Below, one piece after another: positions 8,366-49,378 of a DNA stretch of 64,000 nt. Source of the stretch: Candidatus Marinacidobacterales bacterium (lineage in GTDB: Bacteria; Acidobacteriota; Vicinamibacteria; Marinacidobacterales; SMYC01); NCBI GenBank assembly GCA_965237955.1, contig OZ250169.1, positions 736,001-800,000 on the forward strand, written 5' to 3'. The position numbers and the translations under genes were made by a program. The notes under the pieces are model-generated. The model was not told the origin of the DNA. It saw nothing but the letters and a program-made list of their open reading frames with translations, and did no database searches. The first letter of the stretch is position 1, and each line of letters begins with the position of its first letter.

Positions 8366-10027
8366 TCAAGGAGGCCCAAGCGGACCTGGACTCAAACGTG
8401 CTAGCCCACTACCCCGCGCGCTAGCCTCGGCCTCGATTTTGGACCCCCACTCCAACAGGTCCACGGGTGAGCACCCGTCGGCAGATCCGAGAACCTCAAG
8501 TCTTAGTCGCGCGCGCGCGGCGAGCTCAAGTGGACTCGTGTTCGCGGCAAACGAGGCATGTACAACGCGGTCCATTCCCGCACCTACCAGAGGGGCAGCC
8601 GTTCTCAGTGCGGCTCGAAGACCAACTGCATTCGTTCGGCCCCAGTGTAAGACGAGATTTCTCTGGCGGTACAGTCGTCGTAAGGTGTGCTTTGCATGCT
8701 GCTCGATATCAAGCAGGGCAGCTCTAGGTTCCTGAAGGATTTTCTTCAATCGTTGTTCGGCCAGCCGATCCGTGTCTGACGTGAGTTGAAGTGGTGTCCC
8801 GTTCAATATTGCGTCGCCCACGAGCGTCGCCCTGTCCCGGTTAGTCGCCGCATCGGCTATCGAACTGGCCAACTCGTCATCGCATGCTTTCCGATGCGCG
8901 TAAGCCAGGGTGGTGAGCTCTGCGCGGGGAAAGGAGCAAGCGACAAACGAGGCCATGCGGTCTCCGGCCACACCGCGATCCCCGGAGTCACCGGGACCGA
9001 GCAAGAGCGTCTCAATCGCGGCCCACCCGCCAGACACAGCTGTCCCTGGTGACCCTCTGTCGAGTGGGTCGATGAGCTCAAGTGCCGCATTGATCCGATC
9101 GTCGTCGGTCTTTCGGTACAGACTGTTTTCTCGATCCAATGCATGGATCTCTACTCCCCTTCGATTCCTGCGAAGTTGGAATGGCTTCCCTTCCCCTGCG
9201 ATCCAAGCGCTACCGTGAAATTGGAGTTGCGAACGAGTACCCACCGCAATTCTCGCTGCGAGCCTCTCAACACCTTCGAAGACTTCATCGATAGCCGACC
9301 ATGGGTCGCGAGCTGTGACTCTAAACAGCATTCCGCCACCCTGTCGAATATCGGTCGCGCTATGGTGGTTTTCCTTAAGCCAATCAGATACCTGCGGGGC
9401 GCTTCGCCACTCGTCGGGCATCTCCGCCCGCGACCGCGGTGCTTTGAGAAAAGCGACTAAGACCTCAAATGCTTTCGCCGGACCGGTCACGAGGTCATGA
9501 GCGTCTTCCAGAAGCTTAGCTAACGTTCGCGTTGAATGCTCGTGATGGATCCGATATGACCACCAACGATGAAGGTACGTAGAGCTGAAGCCCGAGTCGA
9601 GTAGGTGTGTCGCGATGGCACGGGCAACTCTTTCTTCGTTGGGCTGATCGGAAGAAGGATCGCCAACGGCTCGCGACCATCTGGCCAAGTACGTCCGTTC
9701 GATTTGCCTACGAATCTGCTCAAGGAGTCGAAACTCCACACCTTCCGGTTTGGGTGAAAGCCGGAGCAGTTTTTGGAGCACACGGTGCTGCTCGGCACCC
9801 CCCACTCCGGGATCCCGAGAAGCGGTCAGTTCGACGGTCTTACGAAGATGCTTGAGCGACTTTTCGCTCAGGACACCGGCGTGAAATGCCTCGCATCCTT
9901 CGAGAACTTCGCGCACACCGAGCTTGAGTCCCACAGCCCAGAGCCTTCGTTGCCAAGGAGTAGGGCGGCTGAAGAAATCGAGGAGGATAGCTGTAACACG
10001 GCGATCGTACGTATTGACAGAGACCAT
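8366..10027 (-). CDS. ApeA-like HEPN-domain protein (putative defence RNase)
   Basis: 553 aa. WAAIETLL helix and C-terminal LRRLYRQRNLVLHWG (R-N-x3-H HEPN motif). Confidence 0.65.
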   Translation of the reverse strand: MVSVNTYDRRVTAILLDFFSRPTPWQRRLWAVGLKLGVREVLEGCEAFHAGVLSEKSLKHLRKTVELTASRDPGVGGAEQHRVLQKLLRLSPKPEGVEFRLLEQIRRQIERTYLARWSRAVGDPSSDQPNEERVARAIATHLLDSGFSSTYLHRWWSYRIHHEHSTRTLAKLLEDAHDLVTGPAKAFEVLVAFLKAPRSRAEMPDEWRSAPQVSDWLKENHHSATDIRQGGGMLFRVTARDPWSAIDEVFEGVERLAARIAVGTRSQLQFHGSAWIAGEGKPFQLRRNRRGVEIHALDRENSLYRKTDDDRINAALELIDPLDRGSPGTAVSGGWAAIETLLLGPGDSGDRGVAGDRMASFVACSFPRAELTTLAYAHRKACDDELASSIADAATNRDRATLVGDAILNGTPLQLTSDTDRLAEQRLKKILQEPRAALLDIEQHAKHTLRRLYRQRNLVLHWGRTNAVGLRAALRTAAPLVGAGMDRVVHASFAANTSPLELAARARLRLEVLGSADGCSPVDLLEWGSKIEAEASARGSGLARLSPGPLGPP

Positions 10028-18582: not shown

Positions 18583-21045
18583 ATGGCCGGAGCAATGGAC
18601 AAGAAAAGCCTCAGTGAACGTGACATCTGCACCAAGTTCATCACACCGGCCTTGCGCCAAGCCGGGTGGGACGAGATGGCGCAGATCCGGGAGGAGGTCA
18701 GCTTCACCAAGGGCCGCATCATCGTGCGCGGCAAGCTGGTCAGCCGGGGAAAGGGCAAGCGGGCCGACTACATCCTTTATTACAAGCCCAACATTCCCAT
18801 CGCCCTGATCGAGGCCAAGGACAACACCCACGCCACCGGCGACGGGATGCAGCAGGGGCTGGACTACGCCGAGACCCTGAATATCCCCTTCGTGTTTTCC
18901 TCCAACGGCGACGGCTTCGTCTTCCACGACCGGACGGGAGCAGGCGCCGAGCGGGAAACGACCCTCGGTCTTGACGCCTTCCCGCCGCCCGACGACCTGT
19001 GGGCGCGCTATCGCGCCTGGAAGGGGCTGACGCCCGAGGCCGAATCCATCGTCCTGCAGGACTATTTCGACGATGGCGGCGACAAGGCCCCGCGCTACTA
19101 CCAGGTCAACGCCATCAACGCCGCCATCGAGGCTATCGCCAAAGGTAACGAACGTATCCTGCTGGTCATGGCGACCGGTACTGGCAAGACCTATACCGCT
19201 TTTCAAATCATCTGGCGGCTATGGAAGGCGGGCCGCAAGAAGCGCATCCTGTTTCTGGCAGATCGCAACGTGTTGGTCGACCAGACGATGGTCAACGACT
19301 TCCGGCCTTTCGGCGCGGCGATGGCGAAGCTCTCGACAAAAGCAAAGACCATCGAACGAGCGGACGGCACTTCCGAAGACCTGACCAGCGCCATCGACGC
19401 AAGACGGCGCATCGACCCCGCCTATGAAATCTATCTCAGCCTCTATCAGGCGATCACCGGACCGGAAGAACATCAGAAGATTTTCCGTGAGTTCTCGCCC
19501 GGATTCTTCGACCTCATTGTGATCGACGAGTGCCATCGCGGCAGCGCCGCCGATGATTCGGCCTGGCGGGAGATTCTGGAGTACTTTTCGTCAGCCACCC
19601 AAATCGGCCTCACCGCCACACCCAAGGAAACCCGCTACGTTTCCAACATCCACTACTTCGGCGAGCCGGTGTACACCTATTCCCTGAAGGAGGGTATCCG
19701 CGACGGTTTTCTGGCACCCTACAAGGTCGTCAAGATCCATGTTGATCGCGACGTGGAGGGCTATCGTCCCGAAAAGGGGCAGCTTGACCGCAATGGCGAG
19801 GAGGTCGAGGACCGCATCTACAACGTCAAGGACTTCGACCGCACGCTGGTCCTAGATGAGCGGACCAAGCTCGTGGCCCGAAAGGTCACGGCGTTCTTGA
19901 AGGAAAGTGGAGACCGTTTTCAGAAAGCGATCGTTTTCTGTGTCGACCAGGAACATGCTGCTCGCGTGCGCCAGGCACTCATCAACGAAAACGCCGACCT
20001 GGTGGAAAAGAACCACCGCTACGTCATGCGCATCACCGGCGCCGACCTTGAGGGGCAGAAGCAACTCAGCAACTTCATCGACCCGGAATCCAGATACCCC
20101 GTGTTGGTCACCACATCACAGCTGCTATCGACCGGTGTCGATGTGCAGACTTGCCGGCTCATCGTGCTGGACCGCGAGGTCGGCTCCATGACCGAGTTCA
20201 AGCAGATCATCGGGCGCGGGACGCGCGTGCATGAGGATACCCGCAAGTTCTACTTCACCTTGATGGATTTTAGGGGCGCGACCACCCATTTCGCGGACCC
20301 GGATTTCGACGGCGAACCGGTGCAAATATACGAACCCGGCGATGACGACCCTATCCTGCCGCCCGAAGATACTTCGCCCAACGGCGACAGCGATGACCCC
20401 ATACCGCCGGAACCGGGCGATGACGAAACCGGTGTTGACGAACCGCCCGACATCATCGTGCCGAATACCGATGGTAGTGTGCGCAAGGTCTATGTGGATG
20501 GTGTCGCCGCGGCCATCGTCGCCGAACGGGTGGAATATCTCGATGAGAACGGCAAGCTCGTCACCGAATCCCTGCGCGACTTCACAAAAAAGGCGCTGAG
20601 GAAGCGCTTCGCCAGCCTCGACGATTTCTTGAAGCGCTGGAAAGCCGCCGAACGCAAGCAGGCGATTGTCGAGGAGCTGGAGGCCGAGGGCTTGCCGCTC
20701 GACATCATCGCCTTGGAATTGGGCAAGGACCTCGACCCCTTCGACCTCATTTGCCATGTCGCCTTCGATGCCAAGCCACTGACCCGGCGCGAGCGGGCCG
20801 ACAACGTCAAGAAGCGGGGCGTGTTCAACAAGTACGGAGACCAGGCCCGCGCTGTGCTCGACGCGTTGCTCGCCAAGTACGCCGACGAAGGTGTGTTCAA
20901 CCTCGACGACATAACCGTGCTGCGCATCCCACCCTTCACCCAACTCGGCACGCCGGTGCAGTTGGTCGAGGTCTTCGGCGGGAGAGCGGGTTTCATCGAG
21001 GCCGTCCACGAGCTTCAATCGGCCCTTTATCGGGAGACTGCTTAG
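18583..21045 (+). CDS. hsdR: Type I restriction endonuclease subunit R (EcoAI/EcoEI-like)
   Basis: ADYIL...IEAK nuclease motif, MATGTGKT, IDECHRGS, LTATP, QIIGRGTR. Confidence 0.95.
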   Translation: MAGAMDKKSLSERDICTKFITPALRQAGWDEMAQIREEVSFTKGRIIVRGKLVSRGKGKRADYILYYKPNIPIALIEAKDNTHATGDGMQQGLDYAETLNIPFVFSSNGDGFVFHDRTGAGAERETTLGLDAFPPPDDLWARYRAWKGLTPEAESIVLQDYFDDGGDKAPRYYQVNAINAAIEAIAKGNERILLVMATGTGKTYTAFQIIWRLWKAGRKKRILFLADRNVLVDQTMVNDFRPFGAAMAKLSTKAKTIERADGTSEDLTSAIDARRRIDPAYEIYLSLYQAITGPEEHQKIFREFSPGFFDLIVIDECHRGSAADDSAWREILEYFSSATQIGLTATPKETRYVSNIHYFGEPVYTYSLKEGIRDGFLAPYKVVKIHVDRDVEGYRPEKGQLDRNGEEVEDRIYNVKDFDRTLVLDERTKLVARKVTAFLKESGDRFQKAIVFCVDQEHAARVRQALINENADLVEKNHRYVMRITGADLEGQKQLSNFIDPESRYPVLVTTSQLLSTGVDVQTCRLIVLDREVGSMTEFKQIIGRGTRVHEDTRKFYFTLMDFRGATTHFADPDFDGEPVQIYEPGDDDPILPPEDTSPNGDSDDPIPPEPGDDETGVDEPPDIIVPNTDGSVRKVYVDGVAAAIVAERVEYLDENGKLVTESLRDFTKKALRKRFASLDDFLKRWKAAERKQAIVEELEAEGLPLDIIALELGKDLDPFDLICHVAFDAKPLTRRERADNVKKRGVFNKYGDQARAVLDALLAKYADEGVFNLDDITVLRIPPFTQLGTPVQLVEVFGGRAGFIEAVHELQSALYRETA

Positions 21046-21048
21046 CCC

Positions 21049-22506
21049 ATGTCCGTCCGTACCCTTGTCAAATCCATCCAGAACATCATGCGCCAGGACA
21101 CCGGCGTTGATGGCGACGCCCAGCGCATCAGCCAGTTGTGCTGGATGTTCTTCCTCAAGATCATCGGTGATCAAGACCAGGAACTAGGATTGATGCGGCC
21201 CGGCTACGCCTCGCCGATACCCAAGCGCTACCAATGGCGCGCTTGGGCGGCGGACCCCGAGGGCATCACCGGTGAAGAACTGCTTGCCTTCATCAACGAC
21301 GACCTGTTCCCGGCCTTTAAGAACCTCCGGATGACCGGGCATCTCGGCGACCGACGCCGCGTCGTACGCGCCGTGTTCGAGGATGCCCACAACTACATGA
21401 AATCCGGTCAGTTGATGCGCCAGGTGGTCAACAAGATCAACGGCGTCGACTTCAACAACCTGACCGAACGCCAGCATTTCGGCGACATCTACGAGCAGAT
21501 TCTCAACGACCTGCAATCGGCGGGCAACGCTGGCGAGTACTATACGCCCCGCGCCGTCACCGCCTTCATGGTCGACCGCATCGACCCGAAGCTTGGCGAG
21601 AGCTTGCTCGATCCCGCCTGCGGCACCGGAGGGTTCCTCACCTGTTCGCTGCGTCACATGCGCGAGCGTTACGTCAAGCGGCCCGAGGATGAGCAGAACA
21701 TGCAGGCGGCGTTGCGCGCGGTGGAGAAAAAGCAGCTTCCGCACATGCTCTGCGTCACCAACATGCTGCTGCACGGCATCGAGGACCCGAGCTTCGTCCG
21801 CCACGACAACACCCTAGCCCGTCCCTATATCAGCTGGGAGCGGAAGGACCGGGTGGACATCGTGCTTACCAATCCACCCTTTGGCGGCAAGGAGGAGGAC
21901 GGCATCGAGTCGAATTTCCCGCAACATTTCCGCACGCGGGAGACGGCAGACCTGTTTCTCGCTCTCATCATTCGCTTGTTGAAGCCGAATGGTCGCGCCG
22001 CCGTGGTGCTGCCCGACGGCTCGCTATTTGGCGAGGGCGTCAAGACACGCCTCAAGGAACACTTGATGGAGGAATGCAACCTCCACACCATCGTCCGGCT
22101 GCCCAACTCCGTGTTCCGGCCCTATGCTTCCATCGGCACCAACCTGCTGTTCTTTGAGAAGGGCGAACCGACCGTGGATATCTGGTTCTACGAGCACTTG
22201 GTGCCCGAGGGCCAGAAGGCCTACTCCATGACCCGGCCGATCCGGCTGGAGCATTTGCAAGGCTGTATAGACTGGTGGGGTGGGGCGAAGCGCGAGGGTC
22301 GGAAGGAGACGGAGCGCGCCTGGAAGGTGACGGTCGACGAGGTCAAGACGCGAAACTACAACCTCGATATCAAGAACCCGCACACGGAGGACGACGACCA
22401 CGGCGACCCCGAGGAACTGCTGAAGGAACTGACTGCTGCCGAGGCTGAAACGGGATACTTACGCGACCGCTTGAAGGCGATCCTGGCCGAGGCGCTCATG
22501 CGATGA
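21049..22506 (+). CDS. hsdM: Type I R-M N6-adenine methyltransferase subunit M
   Basis: GEYYTPR, DPACGTGGFL, TNPPFGG. Confidence 0.95.
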   Translation: MSVRTLVKSIQNIMRQDTGVDGDAQRISQLCWMFFLKIIGDQDQELGLMRPGYASPIPKRYQWRAWAADPEGITGEELLAFINDDLFPAFKNLRMTGHLGDRRRVVRAVFEDAHNYMKSGQLMRQVVNKINGVDFNNLTERQHFGDIYEQILNDLQSAGNAGEYYTPRAVTAFMVDRIDPKLGESLLDPACGTGGFLTCSLRHMRERYVKRPEDEQNMQAALRAVEKKQLPHMLCVTNMLLHGIEDPSFVRHDNTLARPYISWERKDRVDIVLTNPPFGGKEEDGIESNFPQHFRTRETADLFLALIIRLLKPNGRAAVVLPDGSLFGEGVKTRLKEHLMEECNLHTIVRLPNSVFRPYASIGTNLLFFEKGEPTVDIWFYEHLVPEGQKAYSMTRPIRLEHLQGCIDWWGGAKREGRKETERAWKVTVDEVKTRNYNLDIKNPHTEDDDHGDPEELLKELTAAEAETGYLRDRLKAILAEALMR

Positions 22507-24188
22507 ACGCCGATCGATTGCTGACCCATTACGAACGGATCGCCGACGCTCCGGATGCGATTGTGCGCTTTCGCCGCTTCATTCTCGATCTGGCCGTACG
22601 CGGCAAGCTCGTGGGGCAGGACCCGAACGATGAACCGGCGTCGGAACTGTTGAAGCGAATCGCGGCGGAGAAAACGCGACTGGTAAGGGCGGGACAGATC
22701 AGGAAGCAAAAAGCCTTTCCCTTTTTGGAGTCGCCGCCCTTCTATGTTCCAGAGAACTGGCGTTGGGCTCGGATCCGAGAGGTCACAAGCGATCGAGGAC
22801 AGAAGGTTCCTGACGCAGTATTCACATATATCGACGTGACTGCCATAGATAAGGAAAACGGCTTGATAATTGGCCCTAGAGTTTTGGCGCCTAGCGAAGC
22901 TCCGAGCCGCGCGCGCAAGATCATACAACGGGGCGATGTAATTTACTCCTGCGTTCGTCCCTACCTTCTGAATATTGCAGTTATCGAGGATGATTACGAT
23001 CCAGCCCCAATCGCTAGTACGGCATTTGCGATTTTGAATGGACACGGTTTTGTGCTCCCGCGATACCTTTGGATCACGCTCCGCAGTCCGTTCATGGTTG
23101 CATGCGTCGAGGAGAATCAGCGCGGCCAAGCTTATCCGGCGATTAATGACGCTGACTTCGCGGTCCTTCCATTACCTCTCCCGCCACTGGCCGAGCAGCA
23201 CCGCATCGTCGCCAAGGTCGATGAACTGATGGCGCTCTGCGACCAGTTAGAGGCGGCACGGGCGGAGCGGGAGGCGACGCGCGACTGGCTGACCAAAGCT
23301 AGCCTCGCCCGTCTCAGCGCATCCGATATAGACGACAAGACATTTCGTTCCTATGCACGCTTTGCCGTCTATGCCCTTCCAGCACTGACGGCTCGTGCCG
23401 ACCAGGTGGAACATCTCCGCCAGACCATCCTTAACCTCACCGTGCGCGGCAAACTGGTGGAGCAGGACCCGAACGACGAACCGGCGGCGGAATTATTGAA
23501 ACGGATTACTGCAGAGAAGGTGGGGGGGAGAAAGAAGACCAAACCGACGACCAACCTGACCAGTTCAATTACAGGATGGGACGTGCCACAGGGATGGGTG
23601 ATTACCGGTCTCCAAACCGTGTGTGCGTCGATTACCGATGGAGACCATCTTCCACCGCCGAAGACCGAGAGTGGAATCCCATTCCTGGTGATCGGTAACG
23701 TCCGTAGCCAAACGATTGAGTTCGCAGGGTCACGATTCGTGTCGCCGGAATACTACGAAGCCCTTGACCCGATTCGCCGCCCAAGAAGTGGTGACCTTCT
23801 TTACACCCTGGTTGGGTCGTATGGGATACCCATCGTTGTCCGTGACGATCAACCTTTCTGCGTTCAGCGCCACATTGGAATATTGCGGCCTTCCAAACTC
23901 ATTGATGTGTTGTTCTTGGCTCGTGCGATGGAAAGCCGTCTGGTATTCGAGCAAGCAATCGCTTGTGCGACAGGCATCGCACAAAAGACCGTTCCGCTTT
24001 CTGGTCTCCGGCGTCTCTTGATCCCGCTCCCACCCCTTGCCGAACAACACCGCATCGTCGCCAAGGTCGATGAACTGATGGCGCTTTGCGACCGGTTAGA
24101 GGCGAACCTCGCCACCGGTGACAACACCCGCTGCCGCCTGCTTGACACCCTCCTACACCAGGTGCTGTCGCCGGTTGCGGATCAATAG
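22503..24188 (+). CDS. hsdS: Type I R-M specificity subunit S
   Basis: Two TRDs, each followed by PLPPLAEQHRIVAKVDELMALCD. ATGA overlap with hsdM. Confidence 0.95.
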   Translation: MNADRLLTHYERIADAPDAIVRFRRFILDLAVRGKLVGQDPNDEPASELLKRIAAEKTRLVRAGQIRKQKAFPFLESPPFYVPENWRWARIREVTSDRGQKVPDAVFTYIDVTAIDKENGLIIGPRVLAPSEAPSRARKIIQRGDVIYSCVRPYLLNIAVIEDDYDPAPIASTAFAILNGHGFVLPRYLWITLRSPFMVACVEENQRGQAYPAINDADFAVLPLPLPPLAEQHRIVAKVDELMALCDQLEAARAEREATRDWLTKASLARLSASDIDDKTFRSYARFAVYALPALTARADQVEHLRQTILNLTVRGKLVEQDPNDEPAAELLKRITAEKVGGRKKTKPTTNLTSSITGWDVPQGWVITGLQTVCASITDGDHLPPPKTESGIPFLVIGNVRSQTIEFAGSRFVSPEYYEALDPIRRPRSGDLLYTLVGSYGIPIVVRDDQPFCVQRHIGILRPSKLIDVLFLARAMESRLVFEQAIACATGIAQKTVPLSGLRRLLIPLPPLAEQHRIVAKVDELMALCDRLEANLATGDNTRCRLLDTLLHQVLSPVADQ

Positions 24189-36102: not shown

Positions 36103-36411
36103 TGTGCCTTCTATTTATTCATCCGGGCGCCCCAAACTTGATTAGTCTCCGGTCTGCCGGCACCATGCCTGCTTGATTTCGTCGTTTGTTCGCGCTCTCA
36201 TCTCCGCCTTCAAGGCTCGTCGCGAGCTGGCTCTCGACAATGTCGCTCTTCGGCAGCAGCTCGCCGTCCTCCGCCGTTCGGTGAAACGGCCGCGGCTCTC
36301 GAACGTCGACCGCGGGTTTTGGGTAACTGTAGAGCCTAAGGGCCCTTGGCCCAGTCGCTAAGCTGCTGATTTATGGTCTATTTCAAAAGGGCTGAGTTTT
36401 GGCACAGGACG
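36103..36411 (+). mobile_element. 309-bp MITE, copy 2
   Basis: Near-identical to 10625-10933. Confidence 0.9.
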
Positions 36412-36553
36412 GGATTGGGTACGCATCCCCGAGGCTCCGACTAATCCCGAACGAAGGACCGTTGCGCCCCGATTCATTGGAGCAGGTGACGAAAACCTGC
36501 TACTCTCGTCGTTTCTAGAAACAACGACTTGGACCTGCGGTGGGTCTTACAAT

Positions 36554-37738
36554 ATGGACGCGGACACGGCCAAGAACTCATCTCCAAACAACGGCAAACT
36601 CTGTCCGCCAGCCGAGCCGGGGCGGTGGATTCACGTTTCCTACATAGGCTGTCTAGGCTGTCTCATTTATGTCATCCTTCTACCCATAGGTGGACTGCCT
36701 AACTATTTTCCTCAACAAACCCTCCTAGCCCACGCAGCTCTCGCGATCGTGCTGGTTTCGATAATCTTGGAGCAATACTTTAGTTACGGTACTAGAGTTC
36801 ACAAGCAACGGCTGGAGGACTGTAGCGTCGTGGAGGCTACTATCGTCGAAGCACGAACCGTAGCTCCGCGGCTAACGGAACCCGAAGTGAGACCGCACGA
36901 TTACGATCGGAAGCAAAAAGAACTGCAGGAAGAGGCCACTAGACTGGAAGATATAGGAAGTGAGTGTTGGACGGAGTATCAGATCCTGCCGCTAAGCCAA
37001 ATGCTTGTGGAATTTCTGGCCATTGATGACTTGAAAGAGCAAGCTAGGTCAAGCCTTTCTGATATCGAGGAATACGCGATCGACATTTCGTACCCATTGG
37101 ATATCCGTAGGTACGATCGTTGGGAAGAGCGAATCAACAACAAGATGGGCGAGATTGAGAAAGCGCGTGACCAACCCAAGGGAGTCGATCCTGACATTGC
37201 ACAGGACGACGCCGCCGAACCTTTACGGGCCGCTCTCCGGATGCTTCTCGAGCACGTCGCTGGCTACGAAAAGTACTGGGTTGAGGGAAGCGCATATCTT
37301 CGTAGTCTCATCACGTGTTCAGCGGTAGCGATCCCTGTTTTCGTAGCAATGGGACTGCTACCGCTTTGGCATCCGGGCGGGGACGGCCGGCTCGATTGGT
37401 TGCATTGGGCTCAGTTGGGAATCGCAGGTGCATTGACGGCCGTGTTGCTAGATTATCGGAGATCTGATGTCGTTGAAGTGGGCGTGACGGAGGGCCGAAA
37501 GGAACTGTGGCGTGCCGTCACAGGTTCAGTACTGGGGTCAGTTGCTGGCCTTCTCGTCTACGGCATGTTGCTCGGCGGCCTACTGGAGGGCAACTTGTTC
37601 CCTGAAGTATTGTTCTCTGAAACAGGAAGTGACACGTTGTCGCATGCGGGACGGTCCTTCTTCTGGGCCCTCTCAGCAGGATTCACTTTCGAAAAGGTAT
37701 TCGAACGTGTTCGTGGCGCACTGGGGCCAAATCAATGA
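36554..37738 (+). CDS. Hypothetical membrane protein: 2 N-terminal TM, soluble helical domain, about 4 C-terminal TM
   Basis: Hydrophobic segments YIGCLGCLIYVILLPIGG, AALAIVLVSIIL, AVAIPVFVAMGLL, LGIAGALTAVLL, VLGSVAGLLVYGMLLGGLL, FFWALSAGF. ATGA overlap with the next gene. Confidence 0.8.
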   Translation: MDADTAKNSSPNNGKLCPPAEPGRWIHVSYIGCLGCLIYVILLPIGGLPNYFPQQTLLAHAALAIVLVSIILEQYFSYGTRVHKQRLEDCSVVEATIVEARTVAPRLTEPEVRPHDYDRKQKELQEEATRLEDIGSECWTEYQILPLSQMLVEFLAIDDLKEQARSSLSDIEEYAIDISYPLDIRRYDRWEERINNKMGEIEKARDQPKGVDPDIAQDDAAEPLRAALRMLLEHVAGYEKYWVEGSAYLRSLITCSAVAIPVFVAMGLLPLWHPGGDGRLDWLHWAQLGIAGALTAVLLDYRRSDVVEVGVTEGRKELWRAVTGSVLGSVAGLLVYGMLLGGLLEGNLFPEVLFSETGSDTLSHAGRSFFWALSAGFTFEKVFERVRGALGPNQ

Positions 37739-38163
37739 AGGATCAACAAGTTCTTCGTTCTATTGACAAGAGTCCTGGCGAGCGGGTCGCGCACGAAGTG
37801 TATGGAGAGGAGCTCATTCTCGATCTGCACGGCTGCCAAACCGAGCGGTTTACACGAGCCGAGATTGCGCGCTTCTGCTCAGAGCTGTGTGAATTGATCG
37901 ACATGGAACGGTGCGATCTGCATTTTTGGGATGATGTAGACGTGCCTGTAGGTGAACGCCAAACGCACCCCAAGACAAAGGGAACGAGCGCTGTGCAGTT
38001 CATCCTCACGAGTACGATCGTCATCCACACGCTGGAGCTGATGGGTTCCGCGTATGTCAACATTTTTTCGTGCAAAGAATTCGATTCAGACGAAGCAGCC
38101 CGTTTTACGGCGAAGTGGTTTGAATCCACTGACTGGACAACCACCGTAGTAACCAGACGCTAA
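37735..38163 (+). CDS. Pyruvoyl-dependent S-adenosylmethionine decarboxylase-like proenzyme
   Basis: YGEELILDLHGC, GTSAVQFILTSTIVIHT (canonical G.S....L.ESH..IHT), NIFSCKEF. Confidence 0.8.
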   Translation: MKDQQVLRSIDKSPGERVAHEVYGEELILDLHGCQTERFTRAEIARFCSELCELIDMERCDLHFWDDVDVPVGERQTHPKTKGTSAVQFILTSTIVIHTLELMGSAYVNIFSCKEFDSDEAARFTAKWFESTDWTTTVVTRR

Positions 38164-38186
38164 CGGGCATCAGACTGGAGGTAAGA

Positions 38187-39554
38187 ATGGCTATGTTGTT
38201 GTTCGAGGAGCAATTTGAGGCTTCGGTGAACGTGAGGCATAACGGTCTTCTCGGACACCTCCGCGAATCCAGCGCACGGCAGTTGTCGAAGGACCTCGTA
38301 GCGGTCAGATTCGTGGTCACCTCTAGTACGTCGTCGGGTTATCAATGTGAGCTCGGGGCCATAACCGGCCTTGATGAAACCAGACATCGGTCAATCAGCT
38401 CCATCTTTAGATTCCAACGCCGACTCACCGAGAATGCCCAAGAGTTCAACGTCGTGCTTATGGTTCCCACAGGTGTGGGCTCGGAGATAGGCGGGCACGC
38501 CGGCGATGCCGCCCCAGTTGCCAGAATGCTGGCGGAAGTGTCCGACACGATCCTTCTTCATCCGAACGTGGTGAACGCGTCCGATGTCAACGAAATGCCA
38601 GAGAATGCCCTGTACGTTGAGGGAAGTGTACTGTGCCGCCTATTGATGGGCACAGTTGGGCTGCAACGAGTACGCTCGAATCGTGTTTTGGTCGTAATCG
38701 ATGCACACAGCGACGAACTTTTTGTGAACGCAGCCGTCAATGCTGTCAGTGGCGCTCGAGCCGCCTATGGTCTCTCATGTGCTGAGGTCGTCTGCCTTGA
38801 TCCGCCGGTGAAACTCCTAGCACGCTACGCTGCGTCTGGCAGGGCAGCGGGCCGCGTCGAGGACTTGGAAGGTTTGATCCAGCTACTCGATGATCGTGCT
38901 GGACAGTACGATGCCGTAGCCATCTCATCAGTTATCGACGTACCTGCGGAGTTTCACCAGGGCTACTTTGACGCGGGCGGGAAGATGGTAAATCCGTGGG
39001 GCGGAGTCGAAGCCATGCTAACGCATTCACTGTCAAGCCTTTATAACTTGCCCACAGCTCATTCACCGATGTTCGAGTCTCGAGAGATCGCCAACATGGA
39101 CCCGGGAATTGTCGACCCCCGAATGGCGGCGGAAGCCGTGTCGGCGACTTTCCTACAATGCACCTTGAAGGGTCTTCAAAGAAGCCCTCGCCTCGTTACA
39201 AGTCCACAAGCGATGAACGAGTCAGGGGTGTTCACAGCTTCGGACGTCTCGTGTCTCGTGATCCCAGACGGATGCTTAGGGCTCCCGACGCTCGCGGCGC
39301 TAGAACAGGGTATTCCAGTGATCGCCGTCCGAGAGAACCGCAACAAGATGAAGAATGATCTCTCCTCACTGCCCTGGGCTGCCGGCCAGTTTCATCAGCT
39401 CGAGAACTACTGGGAGGCAGCAGGAGTGATTGCGGCGATGCGCGCCGGGATCGATCCAGTTTCAGTCCGGCGGCCACTCGCCCGAACAACAGTGTCGAAG
39501 TTTGTTGCTTCCGATATGACTCGCGCCGGAAGACGCGGGTCGTATAATCTTTAG
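38187..39554 (+). CDS. DUF3326-domain protein with N-terminal extension
   Basis: VPTGVGSEIGGHAGDA, LHPNVVNAS, LYVEGS, WGGVEAMLTH, VDPRMAAE, IAVREN, NYWEAAG. RBS GGAGG upstream. Confidence 0.8.
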   Translation: MAMLLFEEQFEASVNVRHNGLLGHLRESSARQLSKDLVAVRFVVTSSTSSGYQCELGAITGLDETRHRSISSIFRFQRRLTENAQEFNVVLMVPTGVGSEIGGHAGDAAPVARMLAEVSDTILLHPNVVNASDVNEMPENALYVEGSVLCRLLMGTVGLQRVRSNRVLVVIDAHSDELFVNAAVNAVSGARAAYGLSCAEVVCLDPPVKLLARYAASGRAAGRVEDLEGLIQLLDDRAGQYDAVAISSVIDVPAEFHQGYFDAGGKMVNPWGGVEAMLTHSLSSLYNLPTAHSPMFESREIANMDPGIVDPRMAAEAVSATFLQCTLKGLQRSPRLVTSPQAMNESGVFTASDVSCLVIPDGCLGLPTLAALEQGIPVIAVRENRNKMKNDLSSLPWAAGQFHQLENYWEAAGVIAAMRAGIDPVSVRRPLARTTVSKFVASDMTRAGRRGSYNL

Positions 39555-39728
39555 TGTCCCTTCCGGGGATGGTAGAGACCTGTGCCTTCTATTTATTCAT
39601 CCGCGCGCACCGAATTTGACTAGTCCCTATACAAGCGCGATTGTGAGAAAAAAATAGGCCAGGGAAGAGAGACATCCTTTCGAGGCCTGCTAGCAGGAAA
39701 GCCGCTGCACGGCCTCGTTCGGCTACCC

Positions 39729-39946
39729 CGTCCTGTGCCAAAACTCCAGCCCTTTCGAAATAGACCACAAATCAGCGGCTTAGACGCCCTTGGAATCCGC
39801 GCAGAATCGAGGGTATTTCGCGCCGCAGGGTTGTCTTCCGACCCCTGGGCTGCGGGTGGCGAGCGAAGGCCCACCGGGGGTGCGCACGGCTGGCTCAAAT
39901 CGGCTGCGGGGCGAGCTACGGGCAGTGAAACTGCGCACCCGGAAGT
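39729..39946. repeat. Type-a end plus ~200 bp internal segment, repeated at 50316-50532
   Basis: Direct sequence match. Partial copies at 30480-30710. Confidence 0.85.
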
Positions 39947-43228: not shown

Positions 43229-45749
43229 TCAAGCGATCTGGGCCTTCAGATAGTTTACGAACGATGTACATGAAAGTAGAAAGTAACGAGCGTCCGCCGC
43301 AGTGAGTGTTGGTTCGTCGAGCATCGCATGACGGATGCCGTCCGCGTCGCTCGTGTATCCGTACAGCTTAATGAAGCCATCCTTCAGCGCCTCCCCTCTG
43401 TGCCAACCTCCTTGAGACACTTCGCCCCTTGAAATTAGTGTAGAGGGCGGAGGAGGATCATGAATGACTACGTTGATTGAGAGAATGACCCCGGCGGGAT
43501 CGGAAGGAGCCCGTAGGGCGACTGCAGATCGCGCCGGCCGCGATGCGGCAGGGGTCCCGGATCCCGAAGTGAGTGAGCAAGCGAAGCGTCGACGCTTTAC
43601 CGCAGAGTACAAGCTGCGGATAGTGCGCGAGGCCGATGCTTGCAAGGGTGACGGGGATGTTGCGGCTCTTCTGCGTCGAGAGGGACTGTACTCGCCGCAT
43701 CTTTCGAGTTGGCGTCGCCAACGTGACAAGATTGCCAAGGCGGGGTTGACATCGAGGAAGCGAGGACGGAAGGCGAAGGCAGAGGATCCACGGGTCAAGG
43801 AGCTCGAGCGCGAGAACGCGCGATTGAAGCATCGCCTGGCTCGGGTGGAGACGATGCTAGAGATCCAAAAAAAAACCTCCGAACTTCTGGGGATCCCCCT
43901 GAATCCACCAGACAGCGACGAGAACGATTGATGGTGGCGGCCGAGGAGCTGGCGGGACGAATTGGACAGACGGCGGAAGCCTGCGAGGCCCTTGGAATAG
44001 CTCGCTCCACGTTGTATCGCAGGCGCCAGACGGTGACGTCCAATGCGAAACGCCGCCCTCGGTCGCACCGAGCCCTCGATGTGACCGAACGTGAGCTGGT
44101 TCTCGGTGCCTTGCACTCCGAGCGGTTCGTCGACAAGGCGCCCGCTCAGGTGTGGGCCACGCTCCTGGACGAGGGAATCTACTACTGCTCGATCCGCACG
44201 ATGTATCGGATTCTGGCGGAGAACGGAGAGGTCCGAGAGCGCCGGAACCAGCTGCGACATCCGAATTATCAAAAGCCGGAGCTGCTGGCCGAAGCGCCGA
44301 ACCAGGTTTGGTCGTGGGATATCACCAAGCTGCGTGGCCCCGTCAAGTGGACCTACTACTACCTCTACGTGATTCTGGACATCTTCTCCCGTTACGTGAC
44401 CGGGTGGATGTTGGCTCGACGAGAAAGCGCTGAGCTCGCTCGTCGTCTCATCAGCGAGAGCTGCCGCAAACAGAACATCGAACCAGACCAGCTCACCATC
44501 CACGCCGACCGTGGCAGCTCGATGCGAAGCAAGTCCGTAGCTATGCTCCTGGCTGACCTCGGCGTTACCAAGACCCACTCCAGACCTTACGTCTCGAACG
44601 ATAACCCCTACTCCGAGTCCCAGTTCAAGACTCTGAAGTATTGCCCTCAGTTTCCGAGCCGTTTTGGTTCCATCGAAGACGGCCGGCTGTTCTGCGGCGG
44701 CTTCCTCGACTACTACAATCACGAACGCCGGCACGCGGGAATCGGCCTCATGACACCGGCCGCCGTTCACGATGGTCTCGCGGAACAGCTCACCACTGCC
44801 CGGCGCCAAATCCTCCTCGAAGCTCATCGGGCTCATCCCGAACGCTTCGTTCGCGGAATGCCACAGCCCCCCGTTTTGCCTCCTCAGGCCTGGATCAACC
44901 CGCCGCCGGAGAAAACGACGCGCCAGGAGGCCGCCGGAGCCACTTTCTCGAGGTGGTCCACACCTGGGGTACCCCCGGATTCAGGCCAACGCGACCAGAT
45001 CTCGCCGCACGCAGACGGTGACCGCCCCGGGCCCACGAGTCTTACTGCATTGATTGAGGCTCACTAAATGCAGTCCGCGGGTGTCTCAAAGTTGTTGACA
45101 CGTTCCGCTCATGCAGCAATCCATTCTTTTCTATCGCCTTGAGAGCGTCACTCAACGTGGCCTTTGGCTTTTCCGAAACAATTCTGGCCATGCTTTCGAC
45201 TGCCAAGATTGACTCTTTGATTGAGTTCCTATAGTCAGGGTTCTCGCGTTTGGCGTACAGGTCCAATGCCTGTTGTATGTGAGCGCCAACGCCAGCGAAC
45301 CGGGAGTCCGCAAGAACCGTTTCCAGCATTTCGCGTTCTTGGGCATTTGTTATGTCTGTGATGTGTCCAGACACAAAGCGGTATCCTGACAACTCCCGCT
45401 CAAGAGTACGGTTGAAGGATTCGAGTTGCAGTTCGGATTTGAAGTACCCAACAACAAATTCGAGAAAGTCGTACACTTCAAACCACTCGCACCCAAAAAA
45501 ATGCTCTCGAATGTGTGCCAGAATTAGGTCGTTATCCTTGGGCCTCGAATCAATTGGTTTCTTGAAGAAGTCAGACCACAATGCTTCGCTGAATAATTCT
45601 ATTAAGCCGTGGTTCAGGGACTGATCCTGGAGCCATAGCTCCACGGTGAGTGTGTTCCAGAGAGAATTCCGTAGTTCGGAATTCATCGAGTCAATCTGGA
45701 TGACTTCCGAGACCGGCTTGAGTCCCTTCCGATGACTGAATGGCTTCAT
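43229..45749 (-). pseudogene. AbiJ-NTD4-like/HEPN abortive-infection protein interrupted by an IS3-family element
   Basis: MKPFSHRKG...LRNSLWN...WFEVYDFLEF...DYRNSIKESI...LLHE joins ALKDGFIKLYGYTSDADGIRHAM when 43394-45107 is removed. Confidence 0.75.
43394..45107 (+). mobile_element. Complete IS3-family element (orfA 43464-43931, orfB 43928-45067), 3-bp TSD CTC
   Basis: RRRFTAEYKLRIV, WSWDITKL, HADRGSSM, DNPYSESQFKTLKY. Subterminal IRs TTGAGACAC / GTGTCTCAA. Confidence 0.9.
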
Positions 45750-46640: not shown

Positions 46641-47028
46641 TTAGTGCCGAACTACTACGTTCGCCGTCCAGTTCGCAGAGCCAAACCACTCGGCCGTAAA
46701 CTGAGCCGCTTCATCCGTCGAATTTCTTGCACGAGAAGATATTGATGTAGGCGGACTTCATCAAATCGAGCGTGTGAATCACAATTGTGCTCGTGAGAAT
46801 GAATTGGACGGCGCTGGTTCCCTTCGTCTTGGGATCAGTTTGCTGGTCTTCGTTGGGCACACCGAGATCATCCCAAAAATAGAGATCGCAGCATTCCATG
46901 TCGATTACTTCACAAAGCTCTGAACAACACCGTTCAATATCAGCGCGTGTAAACGTGCTTGAGTCGCAGTCGTGCAAATCTAAAATGAGTTCCAATCCGT
47001 AATGATCTGTTTGTACGGTTGTTGTCAT
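46641..47028 (-). pseudogene. Second SAM-decarboxylase-like gene, frameshifted near 46715
   Basis: Highly similar to 37735-38163 (identical PKTKGTSAVQFILTSTIVIHTL). The shifted frame continues DEAAQFTAEWFGSANWTANVVVRH*. Confidence 0.85.
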
Positions 47029-47210: not shown

Positions 47211-48056
47211 CTAACCCTCTCCGTGTGCAAGATCGAACAGCGGAGTGTATCGCGACAATGACTTCTTGAGGGCAAAGCGTCGAGCCAATGCAAACGTCAA
47301 AGCGCCAGAACGAACCTCCTCCAAGTACTGCCACTTCTTTGGGACATCGGGGCTGTTAGCGCCCAAGCATGTCACGTACATATGTACAGCATTCTCTGTG
47401 TCTTCGATAGCCTTCAACCTGTCTTTGATCAGCGCTTCACGGATATTCAAACCCAAAATGCGAATAAACACCTTGCCTCTTTCTGATTTTTCTCTGAGTA
47501 TTCCCGTCTCATCTATAGAGAGATGTTCAGCCGGTTCATCCACCAGCGGATTTAACAGGAGTGGTTGCTCATTCACCTCACCTCCCGGTTCGGTCGCATG
47601 TTTTCCATCCACCGGGAACCGCGCCCCCTTTCCTACTGGGACGCCTCCGTGCTTCTTCGCGTTGATTCGGTTGCAGTCGATGCACGCATAAAGGAGATTT
47701 GACCACTCGTACGTTAGCCAGTAATAGCCCGGATGAGGAACCTCCTCTCCACCGTTCGAATCTACCATAACGGGACTTTGATCTTCGTGAGTCACCTTGC
47801 CCTTTGGCCGATAGTGCTCAATGTCGCCTGGTTGGGTGCTCTCGATTCGACCCTCGCAGTACGCACACTTGCCAAAAAATGGCGGTCCATCGTGCTTGTA
47901 AACCGCCGTCATGCGGGAATCCTTGTACAGATTAATGAGTTGGGCATCTTCACCGTTCCGGACTCGTTCAATCACAGCATCACGTTCCAACTGGCACTCA
48001 TTACACCACTCTTTCCAATCGTCGGAATCCGGTTCCACTAATTCCAGCTTAATCAC
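47211..48056 (-). CDS. HNH endonuclease (PtuB/retron-effector-like)
   Basis: GKCAYCE, DIEHYRPK, GYYWLTYEWSNLLYACIDCN, PLLLNP. Confidence 0.85.
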   Translation of the reverse strand: MIKLELVEPDSDDWKEWCNECQLERDAVIERVRNGEDAQLINLYKDSRMTAVYKHDGPPFFGKCAYCEGRIESTQPGDIEHYRPKGKVTHEDQSPVMVDSNGGEEVPHPGYYWLTYEWSNLLYACIDCNRINAKKHGGVPVGKGARFPVDGKHATEPGGEVNEQPLLLNPLVDEPAEHLSIDETGILREKSERGKVFIRILGLNIREALIKDRLKAIEDTENAVHMYVTCLGANSPDVPKKWQYLEEVRSGALTFALARRFALKKSLSRYTPLFDLAHGEG

Positions 48057-49378
48057 GAATCGCCTTCATCAAATATCTCGGTGAGCTGTCTCCTCGCTTC
48101 GAGATCCAAAGCCTCCAGCGTCACGTTGCCACTCGTAATTGCGTCGGCAGCCAGTCTCTCTAATGTCTCTCGTACCGCCTTGCGAACGTACGCCTGAAGG
48201 GTGCTCTCGTTTTGGCTGAATGTGTCCACGAGTCCATCATGCAGCCCTTGAAGTTCTTGTTCTTCCTCTGGTGTGCGCTGGCGCTTGCTTGACAGGTCGG
48301 AATAGCGCCCCACATCTTGTGTGACCTGATCACTGGTCGTGGATACAAGACCGAACAAGTGAGAGGTCAGTACCTGGTCTGCGCGGAGATTGCGAGGGGG
48401 ATACAAGTCCTTCCGCACGGTGAGGTTCGATCCCGACAGCTCCAACAGTATGAGCTGACACAGCTCGTCAGCTAGAGCTGACGAGCCAATAGCCACTAAA
48501 GGTGCGTGTGTTGTCGTGATGAATTGAATGCCAGGAAACTCCTTGGCAAGTCGGCCGATGATTACCCTTTGCCAGTAGGGATGCAGATGTTTTTCAAGTT
48601 CATCTATTAGTACTATTCCTTCAATTCGTGTCGCGAATTTATTTTGCCTGCTAAGAAGTGACCATCCAAGTAGGTCACAGACCCACGCAATTGTGGCGAC
48701 GTATCCGTCACCCAATGCCCCGAGTGGTACGAACTCTCCCCACGGCCCACGAACTTTAAGACCGGAAGAATTTAGAGTTGTCGCTCCGGGAGGCAAGTTC
48801 AAAACACGATCGACGAGCGTGAGCAGTTCGTCTTGTGAGGTCTCCGCGTTACGTAGAATCCGATACAGTGCAGTTTCTGGATTCTGAAGGCGCGAGTCGT
48901 AGTTGAAGAGAGAATAAACAGCGTCGACTACGCGATATTTTTCATATACTTCGTTTCCCACAGATCGGACGGCTGCGCCGTATCCGCAAGCAAACAATTG
49001 TGACCGCGGGATGCCATTGGATTCGGCCTCCTGCTTAACATCTTCATTTCCATCATCGTTTTTTCTGAAAGTCGTTGTAATCGTATAGGCTATGCCTGGG
49101 TCCGTGCTGGAAAAGAGTTTGATCTCAATGATGGCTTCGCTGGAGCCCGTCCGGATGATTTCTCCAGACATTTCCGTTAGGAGGCCGGATGCTCCGGTTT
49201 CGTCGCAAAGCCCCATCGCAATCGCACGGAGAAGGCTCGTCTTACCGGTACCGTTGTCACCGAGAATTAAGGTCCAGCTTGCTTGCTCTTGGTCTTGCGA
49301 CGGAGGGACCAGGTCGATCACCGTTTCCCCTTGGAAACATCGCACATCAACTAGTCGTATGCTGGATATGTAGAGCAT
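48053..49378 (-). CDS. ABC/AAA ATPase (PtuA-like)
   Basis: GDNGTGKT Walker A, LGDGY signature, VLIDELEKHLHPYWQ Walker B, QFITTTHAP. 4-bp overlap with the HNH gene. Confidence 0.88.
   Translation of the reverse strand: MLYISSIRLVDVRCFQGETVIDLVPPSQDQEQASWTLILGDNGTGKTSLLRAIAMGLCDETGASGLLTEMSGEIIRTGSSEAIIEIKLFSSTDPGIAYTITTTFRKNDDGNEDVKQEAESNGIPRSQLFACGYGAAVRSVGNEVYEKYRVVDAVYSLFNYDSRLQNPETALYRILRNAETSQDELLTLVDRVLNLPPGATTLNSSGLKVRGPWGEFVPLGALGDGYVATIAWVCDLLGWSLLSRQNKFATRIEGIVLIDELEKHLHPYWQRVIIGRLAKEFPGIQFITTTHAPLVAIGSSALADELCQLILLELSGSNLTVRKDLYPPRNLRADQVLTSHLFGLVSTTSDQVTQDVGRYSDLSSKRQRTPEEEQELQGLHDGLVDTFSQNESTLQAYVRKAVRETLERLAADAITSGNVTLEALDLEARRQLTEIFDEGDS

Follow-up and report, generated by a model that had tools for sequence, protein, structure and literature searches.

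A three-gene operon at positions 36554–39554 of a 64 000 nt stretch of contig OZ250169.1 from a Candidatus Marinacidobacterales bacterium (the whole stretch is called the window here) probably encodes a defence system of some kind, judging from sequence comparisons. It consists of genes for a transmembrane (TM) protein, a decarboxylase with the S-adenosylmethionine decarboxylase (AdoMetDC) fold and a protein of the DUF3326 family. The observations fit the pattern of an enzyme core, made up of the decarboxylase and DUF3326, that controls interchangeable effectors via a small molecule, and the operon belongs to a real, previously undescribed candidate defence family. Tentatively, we predict an anti-phage system that is braked by a polyamine of its own making.

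The three genes form the intact, tightly coupled operon that a preliminary description of this DNA had reported. All three open reading frames (ORFs) were found on the forward strand. Gene 1 (36554–37738, 394 amino acids) encodes a six-TM protein of an unnamed family that is the predicted effector, gene 2 (37735–38163, 142 amino acids) a class 1b AdoMetDC-fold pyruvoyl proenzyme (PF02675), and gene 3 (38187–39554, 455 amino acids) a long-form DUF3326 protein (PF11805, residues 89–427) that is predicted to be an amine-condensing enzyme. Genes 1 and 2 overlap by ATGA at 37735–37738, and the 23 nt gap before 38187 includes GGAGG. A contig from run X1, possibly the source sample of the assembly, covers 36387–39606 with zero differences to the window, and two contigs from run X4 cover the operon, also with zero differences. 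Contigs from runs X5 and X6, at 36809–37584, have one gap somewhere in the TM region (one base longer, judged by lengths) and are gap-free in the core genes that they cover; they possibly represent strains with a broken TM gene. No sigma-70-like promoter was found at the operon, and terminator-like sites were no more frequent there than expected by chance.

Partners of the decarboxylase and DUF3326 genes

When GTDB was scanned with gene 3, 52 loci were returned, 33 with the long form of DUF3326, which has an N-terminal extension, and 19 others (15 full short forms and four fragments). Neighbours were counted on the same strand within 5 kb using profiles made from clustered ORFs of those very loci, and the counts are circular to that extent; nor are the loci independent. 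L011 and L012 are from one genome. A decarboxylase gene is present in 32 of the 33 long-form loci, AdoMetDC-like in 18 and of the pyridoxal phosphate (PLP) type, resembling NspC, in 14, but never both. The most common further partner is the PtuA and PtuB pair of Septu (19/33), followed by the TM protein (7/33). L014 has both, and together they account for 25 of the 33 loci. PADLOC matches for PtuA and PtuB in these loci have E values of about 1e-60 and 1e-50. None of these neighbours (decarboxylase, TM protein, PtuAB or the K+ channel set described below) was found in the 19 loci that are not long-form. The proposal that the decarboxylase and DUF3326 form a core is thus borne out by their near-constant co-occurrence in the long-form clade with swappable partners, and the TM protein fills the slot that is otherwise held by a known defence pair, as befits the exchangeable effector it had been taken for. 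Tabulated neighbourhoods place the core genes near defence genes and not in polyamine housekeeping operons.

A search of metagenomes with an alignment of the TM family returned 20 loci. All 11 that have a full-length TM gene and downstream DNA carry the decarboxylase gene and 10 also carry DUF3326; L111 ends inside the decarboxylase gene, and L105 and L106 are duplicates. The remaining loci comprise four that stop at the TM gene or inside it and five distant partial matches without the core. Gene order in L107 is TM-PtuA-PtuB-decarboxylase-DUF3326, and genome G211 carries the same three genes as the window. The TM family forms 224 clusters at 50% identity. It is rare, and both it and DUF3326 are distributed sporadically, being found in 2 of 301 genomes of the class and 6 of 401 of the phylum, respectively.

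In a DUF3326 tree (98 rows, quick mode, duplicates omitted), the TM label requires at least seven changes and TM-linked and PtuAB-linked sequences interleave. One tight clade contains five TM loci, two PtuAB loci and one double locus. The window DUF3326 is nearest to a PtuAB-linked one (78–79% identity) and shares 57–62% identity with the TM-linked proteins of L009–L017. As L014 and L107 have both effectors on one core, a diffusible product fits better than a one-to-one complex. The core-linked PtuA proteins form one clade, in which 19 of 20 rows are linked to the core. Among the 401 phylum genomes, members of this clade were found in G000, G590 and G109, which have the core, and in G394, in which no DUF3326 was found.

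Non-generic PADLOC matches lie near 5 of the 11 TM loci versus 0 of 10 stand-alone DUF3326 loci, in a comparison that covered 67/80 and 69/71 of the listed ORFs, excluded two hand-picked L130 proteins and included three TM loci on short contigs. They are SIR2/ThsA-like, PDC-M41B, type I restriction-modification (R-M), AbiEi and HEC-02 genes, and McrBC is near a sixth TM locus. In L011, L026 and L111 the effector gene is split and the visible core genes are whole, while no effector lies near the broken cores of L032, L033, L034 and L051.

Other arrangements were also seen. Five loci from Dehalococcoidia/Chloroflexota (L018, L019, L020, L022 and L035) contain genes for an NspC-like enzyme, DUF3326, a soluble protein of 470–560 amino acids (F8) and an RCK-domain K+ channel, with a SecA-like gene in four of the five. 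F8 has a Cys-His-Asp pattern recognisable by eye and no Pfam match, and these loci were rejected as effector loci as F8 matched no family. A gene resembling MfnB (4-(hydroxymethyl)-2-furancarboxaldehyde-phosphate synthase) lies within the PtuAB-type cassettes of L001, L015 and L027. In two Bacteroidota loci of the PtuAB type, a patatin gene (L021:3635–5197) or Mrr and TIR genes (L030:4591–5585) directly follow DUF3326, and these are possible further effectors. The 15 stand-alone short DUF3326 genes (L036–L050) are mostly from Planctomycetota and group as a single clade within viral sequences. No partner decarboxylase was found near them, and a search of five genomes with a stand-alone short DUF3326, of unstated completeness and with no positive control, did not find the AdoMetDC-like partner.

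Products of the three genes

Gene 2 matches PF02675 (AdoMet_dc) with 56 bits (cut-off 25) and the equivalog model TIGR03330 with 28 bits, below its cut-off of 76. Its residues S93, H98 and C113 align to S63, H68 and C83 of the Thermotoga maritima enzyme (1tlu/1vr7), which are named as the residues of self-cleavage and catalysis (PMC10407285). They are conserved in 54/54, 53/54 and 54/54 members of the decarboxylase family, respectively, and gene 2 thus has the serine, histidine and cysteine of a class 1b pyruvoyl decarboxylase fold. A proline follows the histidine in all true AdoMetDCs (PMC10407285). Only 5 of the 54 family members have it, and gene 2 has glutamate in this column, the placement of which was inferred via the 1tlu alignment. 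The diagnostic residues of the pyruvoyl ornithine decarboxylase SpeDC are Gln, Thr, Phe and Tyr; Q88, F89, T92 and Y107 are conserved in the family and may or may not be their counterparts. No spermidine synthase gene (speE) is adjacent to gene 2, as had been noted previously, and the genome has a separate adjacent speD-speE pair elsewhere. By the TIGR03330 score, the proline and the SpeE partner, gene 2 does not qualify as a bona fide AdoMetDC (SpeD). A known exception to these features is Sinorhizobium phage phiN3, which encodes the nearest annotated phage homologue of gene 2 (25% identity). The phiN3 enzyme is a proven AdoMetDC that belongs to a clade resembling ornithine decarboxylase (PMC9992855), and that of its near-twin phiM12 likewise lacks the proline.

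The alternative PLP-type partner is nearest to NspC in all seven cases tested (214–300 bits versus 64–97 bits for LysA), and in all seven it falls below the 409 bit cut-off of the NspC equivalog TIGR01047. NspC-like and DUF3326 domains are fused in two of four long homologues. Substrates of NspC are carboxy-polyamines. As NspC swaps in, the proline is missing and the genome owns a speD-speE pair, S-adenosylmethionine (SAM) is probably not the substrate of gene 2. The core had been suggested to handle a small amine or a SAM-derived metabolite; of the two, we favour the amine and consider a SAM-derived product less likely.

Gene 3 matches PF11805 with 316 bits (gathering score 25), and its N-terminal extension of approximately 85 amino acids makes it a long form. 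The AlphaFold model (predicted local distance difference test, pLDDT, 83.7) shows a pair of alpha/beta domains. Two of its loops, one of them glycine-rich, have low confidence and are conserved across host, viral and stand-alone DUF3326 proteins. In a comparison aimed at the folds of homospermidine synthase, CASDH and deoxyhypusine synthase, the best structural match was lumazine synthase (Z 8.1, root mean square deviation 4.2, 141 residues aligned), with saccharopine reductase inside a tied group (Z 7.3, root mean square deviation 3.5, 137 residues aligned). Fold searches returned generic alpha/beta matches only, and no specific relative was found. Sequence and profile searches of the PDB returned nothing specific, and the ESM Atlas yielded no usable match beyond PF11805.

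The only studied DUF3326 protein is PavB, described in a preprint (bioRxiv 10.64898/2026.06.12.731819). According to its available text, PavB and PavA, which resembles carboxynorspermidine decarboxylase, are both required for N-(5-aminopentyl)pentane-1,5-diamine, and cadaverine is present without them. In the available text of PMC4284462, DUF3326 is merely listed beside fed3 in cyanobacteria. From the substrates of NspC and the requirement for both PavA and PavB, we infer that DUF3326 would condense first and the decarboxylase finish. P0297 is a fusion of DUF3326 with a SET domain and a methyltransferase of the NNMT type, and a SET gene (L128:4947–5342) lies near an NspC-DUF3326 pair, company that hints at methylated amines.

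Gene 1 has no match in Pfam, NCBIfam or PADLOC. The preliminary count of about six TM segments was supported by family-averaged hydropathy, which shows two N-terminal and four C-terminal segments, the last of them weak. The helices of the AlphaFold model (pLDDT 87.7) agree with these and place a cytoplasmic helical bundle (approximately residues 87–245) between the first two TM helices and the other four. Positions conserved in at least 90% of the family, mostly within the bundle, include 15 acidic, 5 basic and 13 aromatic ones, and the acidic and aromatic residues would suit a polycation site. Polyamines block channels. Fold searches with gene 1 returned only generic three-helix bundles and none that was specific, PDB sequence and profile searches found nothing specific, and the ESM Atlas returned unnamed clusters only.

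Viral copies of the core and a predicted polyamine brake

IMG/VR contains 45 DUF3326 loci (including four near-duplicate pairs), and an AdoMetDC-like gene is present in 37 of them. Neither the TM protein nor PtuAB was found in any of the 45, and the TM family was not found in IMG/VR. A long-form DUF3326 is present in 9 of the 45, and two of these are nested among host copies. When the decarboxylase was used to anchor the viral search, 123 loci were returned, and DUF3326 lay within 3 kb in 52 of the best 80. Of the 31 viral loci scanned, 14 have head or packaging genes no more than approximately 2.5 kb from the core, a count without a background control. No DUF3326 match was found in INPHARED (isolate phages) or PLSDB (plasmids), and a further search returned one match with an E value of 0.6. 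In the viral locus L054 (4293–7287), a gene of the phosphatidylserine decarboxylase family, possibly a third decarboxylase fold, is followed by a long-form DUF3326 gene and then a portal gene. In L062 (3939–6134), L083 and L096, an ornithine cyclodeaminase/mu-crystallin gene precedes DUF3326 instead of a decarboxylase gene.

In the mechanism that we tentatively propose, DUF3326 would make a carboxy-polyamine by joining two units (amines or amino acids), and the decarboxylase would act second, as in the CASDH/CASDC route. An unusual polyamine would be produced constantly, diffuse and bind to the TM protein at conserved acidic and aromatic positions in its cytoplasmic bundle, where it would inhibit, i.e. 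hold the TM protein shut, rather than activate. Infection would drain the amine by acetylation, by binding to new phage DNA or through host shut-off, and the loss of the amine would free the TM protein, leading to cell arrest or death. Phages that carry a core of their own would replenish the amine. Diverse phages encode spermidine acetyltransferases (PMC9992855), and these could drain an amine.

A brake is preferred because phages would benefit from making an inhibitor and not an activator, because retron-Septu, Hailong and Panoptes work in this way, and because split effectors sit beside whole core genes while broken cores are without an effector. PtuAB under the control of a retron brake, Hailong and Panoptes serve as precedents (PMC13434031, PMC12657218). 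The preliminary description had looked to CBASS-like logic, in which the signal activates; we favour the inverse, since phages carry a core that lacks an effector.

Several observations weigh against a brake, or against the wider picture of a core with defence effectors. Neither the TM protein nor PtuAB was found in 8 of the 33 long-form loci; five of these are the loci with the soluble protein and K+ channel, and nothing was recognised in the other three (L024, L025 and L033, where DUF3326 is broken). Among the best 80 of 123 viral decarboxylase loci, 28 have no DUF3326 within 3 kb, although six of these have less than 500 nt of downstream sequence. The DUF3326 proteins of 36 of the 45 viral loci are short forms that fall largely in a separate clade and have different polar residues, and they may differ in product and in purpose, DNA packaging being one example. 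A PtuA/PtuB pair of the core-linked clade (L234:7830–10060) appears intact in genome G394, which is 99% complete in 220 contigs and in which no DUF3326 was found. G394 is one of the three genomes, other than that of the window, to which the search with PtuA led, and it is not what a strict brake predicts. There is no nearby PADLOC match in 6 of the 11 TM loci, gene splits in metagenome-assembled genomes may be sequencing errors, and PavB is likened to gene 3 by membership of the DUF3326 family.

The reading that competes most directly with a brake, although we consider it doubtful, is an activating messenger with the logic of CBASS or Thoeris. Infection would switch on the long-form DUF3326, perhaps via its N-terminal extension, the amine would activate the TM protein or PtuAB, and the short forms of phages would serve packaging or make a competing amine. 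A core with swappable effectors is expected alike under this reading, which also accommodates the extension in all 25 TM- or PtuAB-linked GTDB loci and its absence from 36 of the 45 viral ones, the packaging genes near viral cores (with the same lack of a background control) and the orphan PtuAB of G394, which would be harmless. However, phages that carry a synthase of the same family, including the nine long forms and the two of these among host copies, would risk triggering the defence, and the published partners of PtuAB are brakes (PMC13434031). It is unlikely that the genes are instead a non-defence mobile cassette for a specialised polyamine with a role in stress, symbiosis or antagonism, as with pavAB, in which the TM protein would be an exporter or confer self-resistance and PtuAB would ride along. 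The sole studied DUF3326 does act in a small-molecule pathway (bioRxiv 10.64898/2026.06.12.731819), the P0297 fusion to methyltransferase and SET domains and the stand-alone DUF3326 genes of Planctomycetota and of a Synechococcus control would fit, and the TM protein matches no defence family. But 19 of the 33 loci have PtuAB inside the operon, these PtuAB form a clade of their own, the TM protein and PtuAB swap on near-identical cores, and the TM protein has no Pfam transporter match.

Two further readings change the chemistry. In one, gene 2 would encode a genuine AdoMetDC, and DUF3326 would transfer aminopropyl or aminocarboxypropyl groups. Decarboxylation would then precede transfer with AdoMetDC and follow it with NspC, and one product would account for both decarboxylase types. 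Phages have SAM lyases, and the brake would fail when such phage SAM-cleaving enzymes drained SAM. While the proven activity of the phiN3 homologue (PMC9992855) and the missing proline of its near-twin phiM12 favour this SAM-fed guard, we regard it as improbable given the speD-speE pair of the genome, the scarcity of the proline in the family (5/54) and a PavAB product without an aminopropyl unit (bioRxiv 10.64898/2026.06.12.731819). Least probable is a covalent self-mark, in which the amine would be attached to DNA or protein, PtuAB would cut unmarked DNA and phages would mark themselves via their own core. It would explain a nuclease partner and phage copies of the core, and the Cys-His-Asp pattern in F8 of the five Dehalococcoidia loci might be counted in its favour, but the TM and PtuAB loci have no conserved DNA-modifying or transferase gene and a membrane effector does not suit a DNA mark.

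Surroundings of the operon and relation to known systems

A second, decayed cassette lies on the reverse strand of the window. It starts with an apparently intact gene for a PtuA-type ABC ATPase of the core-linked clade (48053–49378) in which Walker A and B are present, followed by an apparently intact gene for a PtuB-type HNH nuclease (47211–48056) and a second decarboxylase gene (46647–47001) that is 75% identical to gene 2 and frameshifted near 46716. An assembly error was rejected as the cause of the frameshift, which contigs of X1 and X4 share. A repeat boundary lies at approximately 46555, and no remnant of DUF3326 was found after that gene using hidden Markov models or BLAST. Although this PtuAB pair has lost its own core, an intact core is 7 kb away, which counts in favour of a brake.

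On the left, the operon is flanked by an end of a repeated insertion sequence (IS)-like element (36358–36413) that is not operon-specific, and on the right by the ends of two repeated IS-like elements (39580–39783). The element ends described previously are thus present. However, the flanking ends have 437 and 50 exact copies in the 8.1 Mb genome, 18 and 6 of them in the window, and as they are genome-wide repeats the bracketing is not special and carries no weight. A composite transposon with its own ends was rejected for the same reason.

The window had been called rich in defence genes, and a type I R-M operon (R, M and S genes; 18583–24188, forward strand), an AbiJ-NTD4/PADLOC PDC-S32 gene (45042–45749, reverse strand) and the PtuA/PtuB pair were confirmed. 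A HEPN gene was not, as the ORF at 8366–10027 has no PADLOC or Pfam match. The product of the AbiJ-NTD4/PDC-S32 gene is 235 amino acids compared to approximately 280 in the models. In contigs from four runs, position 43390 is followed by 45108 and 1.7 kb is missing, which suggests that an element has inserted at the 3' end of this gene.

The operon is not a member of Septu, retron-Septu, the CBASS-type systems, Hailong, Panoptes or pavABC. PtuA and PtuB of Septu are the commonest partner of the core and are found as a separate pair in the window (47211–49378), but the operon has the TM protein in place of PtuAB and its three genes have no PADLOC match. In retron-Septu, a molecule made by the partner locks PtuAB (PMC13434031), whereas the partner here consists of two small-molecule enzymes. 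No reverse transcriptase was seen in the operon or in the neighbour families that recur; RNA families (msr-msd) were not searched. CBASS, Thoeris and Pycsar likewise combine a conserved core of enzymes with effectors, TM proteins or nucleases, that can be swapped, but no cyclase, TIR or nucleotide sensor domain is present in these three proteins. Hailong (HalA/HalB) and Panoptes (OptS/OptE) combine an enzyme with a membrane effector and a constitutive inhibitor whose loss triggers defence (PMC13434031, PMC12657218), which is the logic proposed here. In both, nucleotidyltransferases make the inhibitor, which is a nucleotide or an oligonucleotide, while the operon has a decarboxylase and DUF3326, for which homology to those enzymes was not found: genes 2 and 3 match PF02675 and PF11805 and no nucleotidyltransferase or cyclase of CBASS, Pycsar, Panoptes or Hailong.

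In the pavAB(C) pavettamine cluster of Burkholderia sensu lato, DUF3326 also adjoins a decarboxylase and both are needed for a symmetric triamine (bioRxiv 10.64898/2026.06.12.731819). That cluster includes the Rieske-decarboxylase PavA and the JmjC protein PavC. Neither domain was found in the operon or the recurring neighbours scanned; the operon has a pyruvoyl decarboxylase and an effector-like partner, and the available text of the preprint does not mention phage. CASDH/CASDC (NspD/NspC) is likewise a two-enzyme module that ends in decarboxylation, and SpeDA and SpeDC are AdoMetDC-fold enzymes that act on amino acids, not SAM, and have phage copies (PMC10407285, PMC9992855). Here, DUF3326 occupies the place of the dehydrogenase, both decarboxylase types are below equivalog cut-offs and the module is linked to defence effectors. 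In the available text of a preprint on Hma-embedded systems, an AdoMetDC-like domain appears only inside the RNase HEC-07 (10.1101/2024.01.29.577857). No published description of this system was found in the literature searched; supplementary system lists could name it.

The operon may work as guard systems do, with a chemistry that none of them uses. More tentatively still, its relatives may make up an immune family run by polyamines. DUF3326 would be a new, non-homologous polyamine synthase, and its product would gate both a dedicated clade of PtuAB and a membrane-channel effector of a new type. Many phages would carry both enzymes, often beside packaging genes, to keep the brake on. The controlling molecules of Hailong, Panoptes, retron-Septu and the CBASS-type systems are nucleotides or nucleic acids, and a polyamine brake or signal, if true, would add a chemical class. 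It would also provide a function for DUF3326, a new family of membrane effectors and a reason for phages to carry the enzyme pair.

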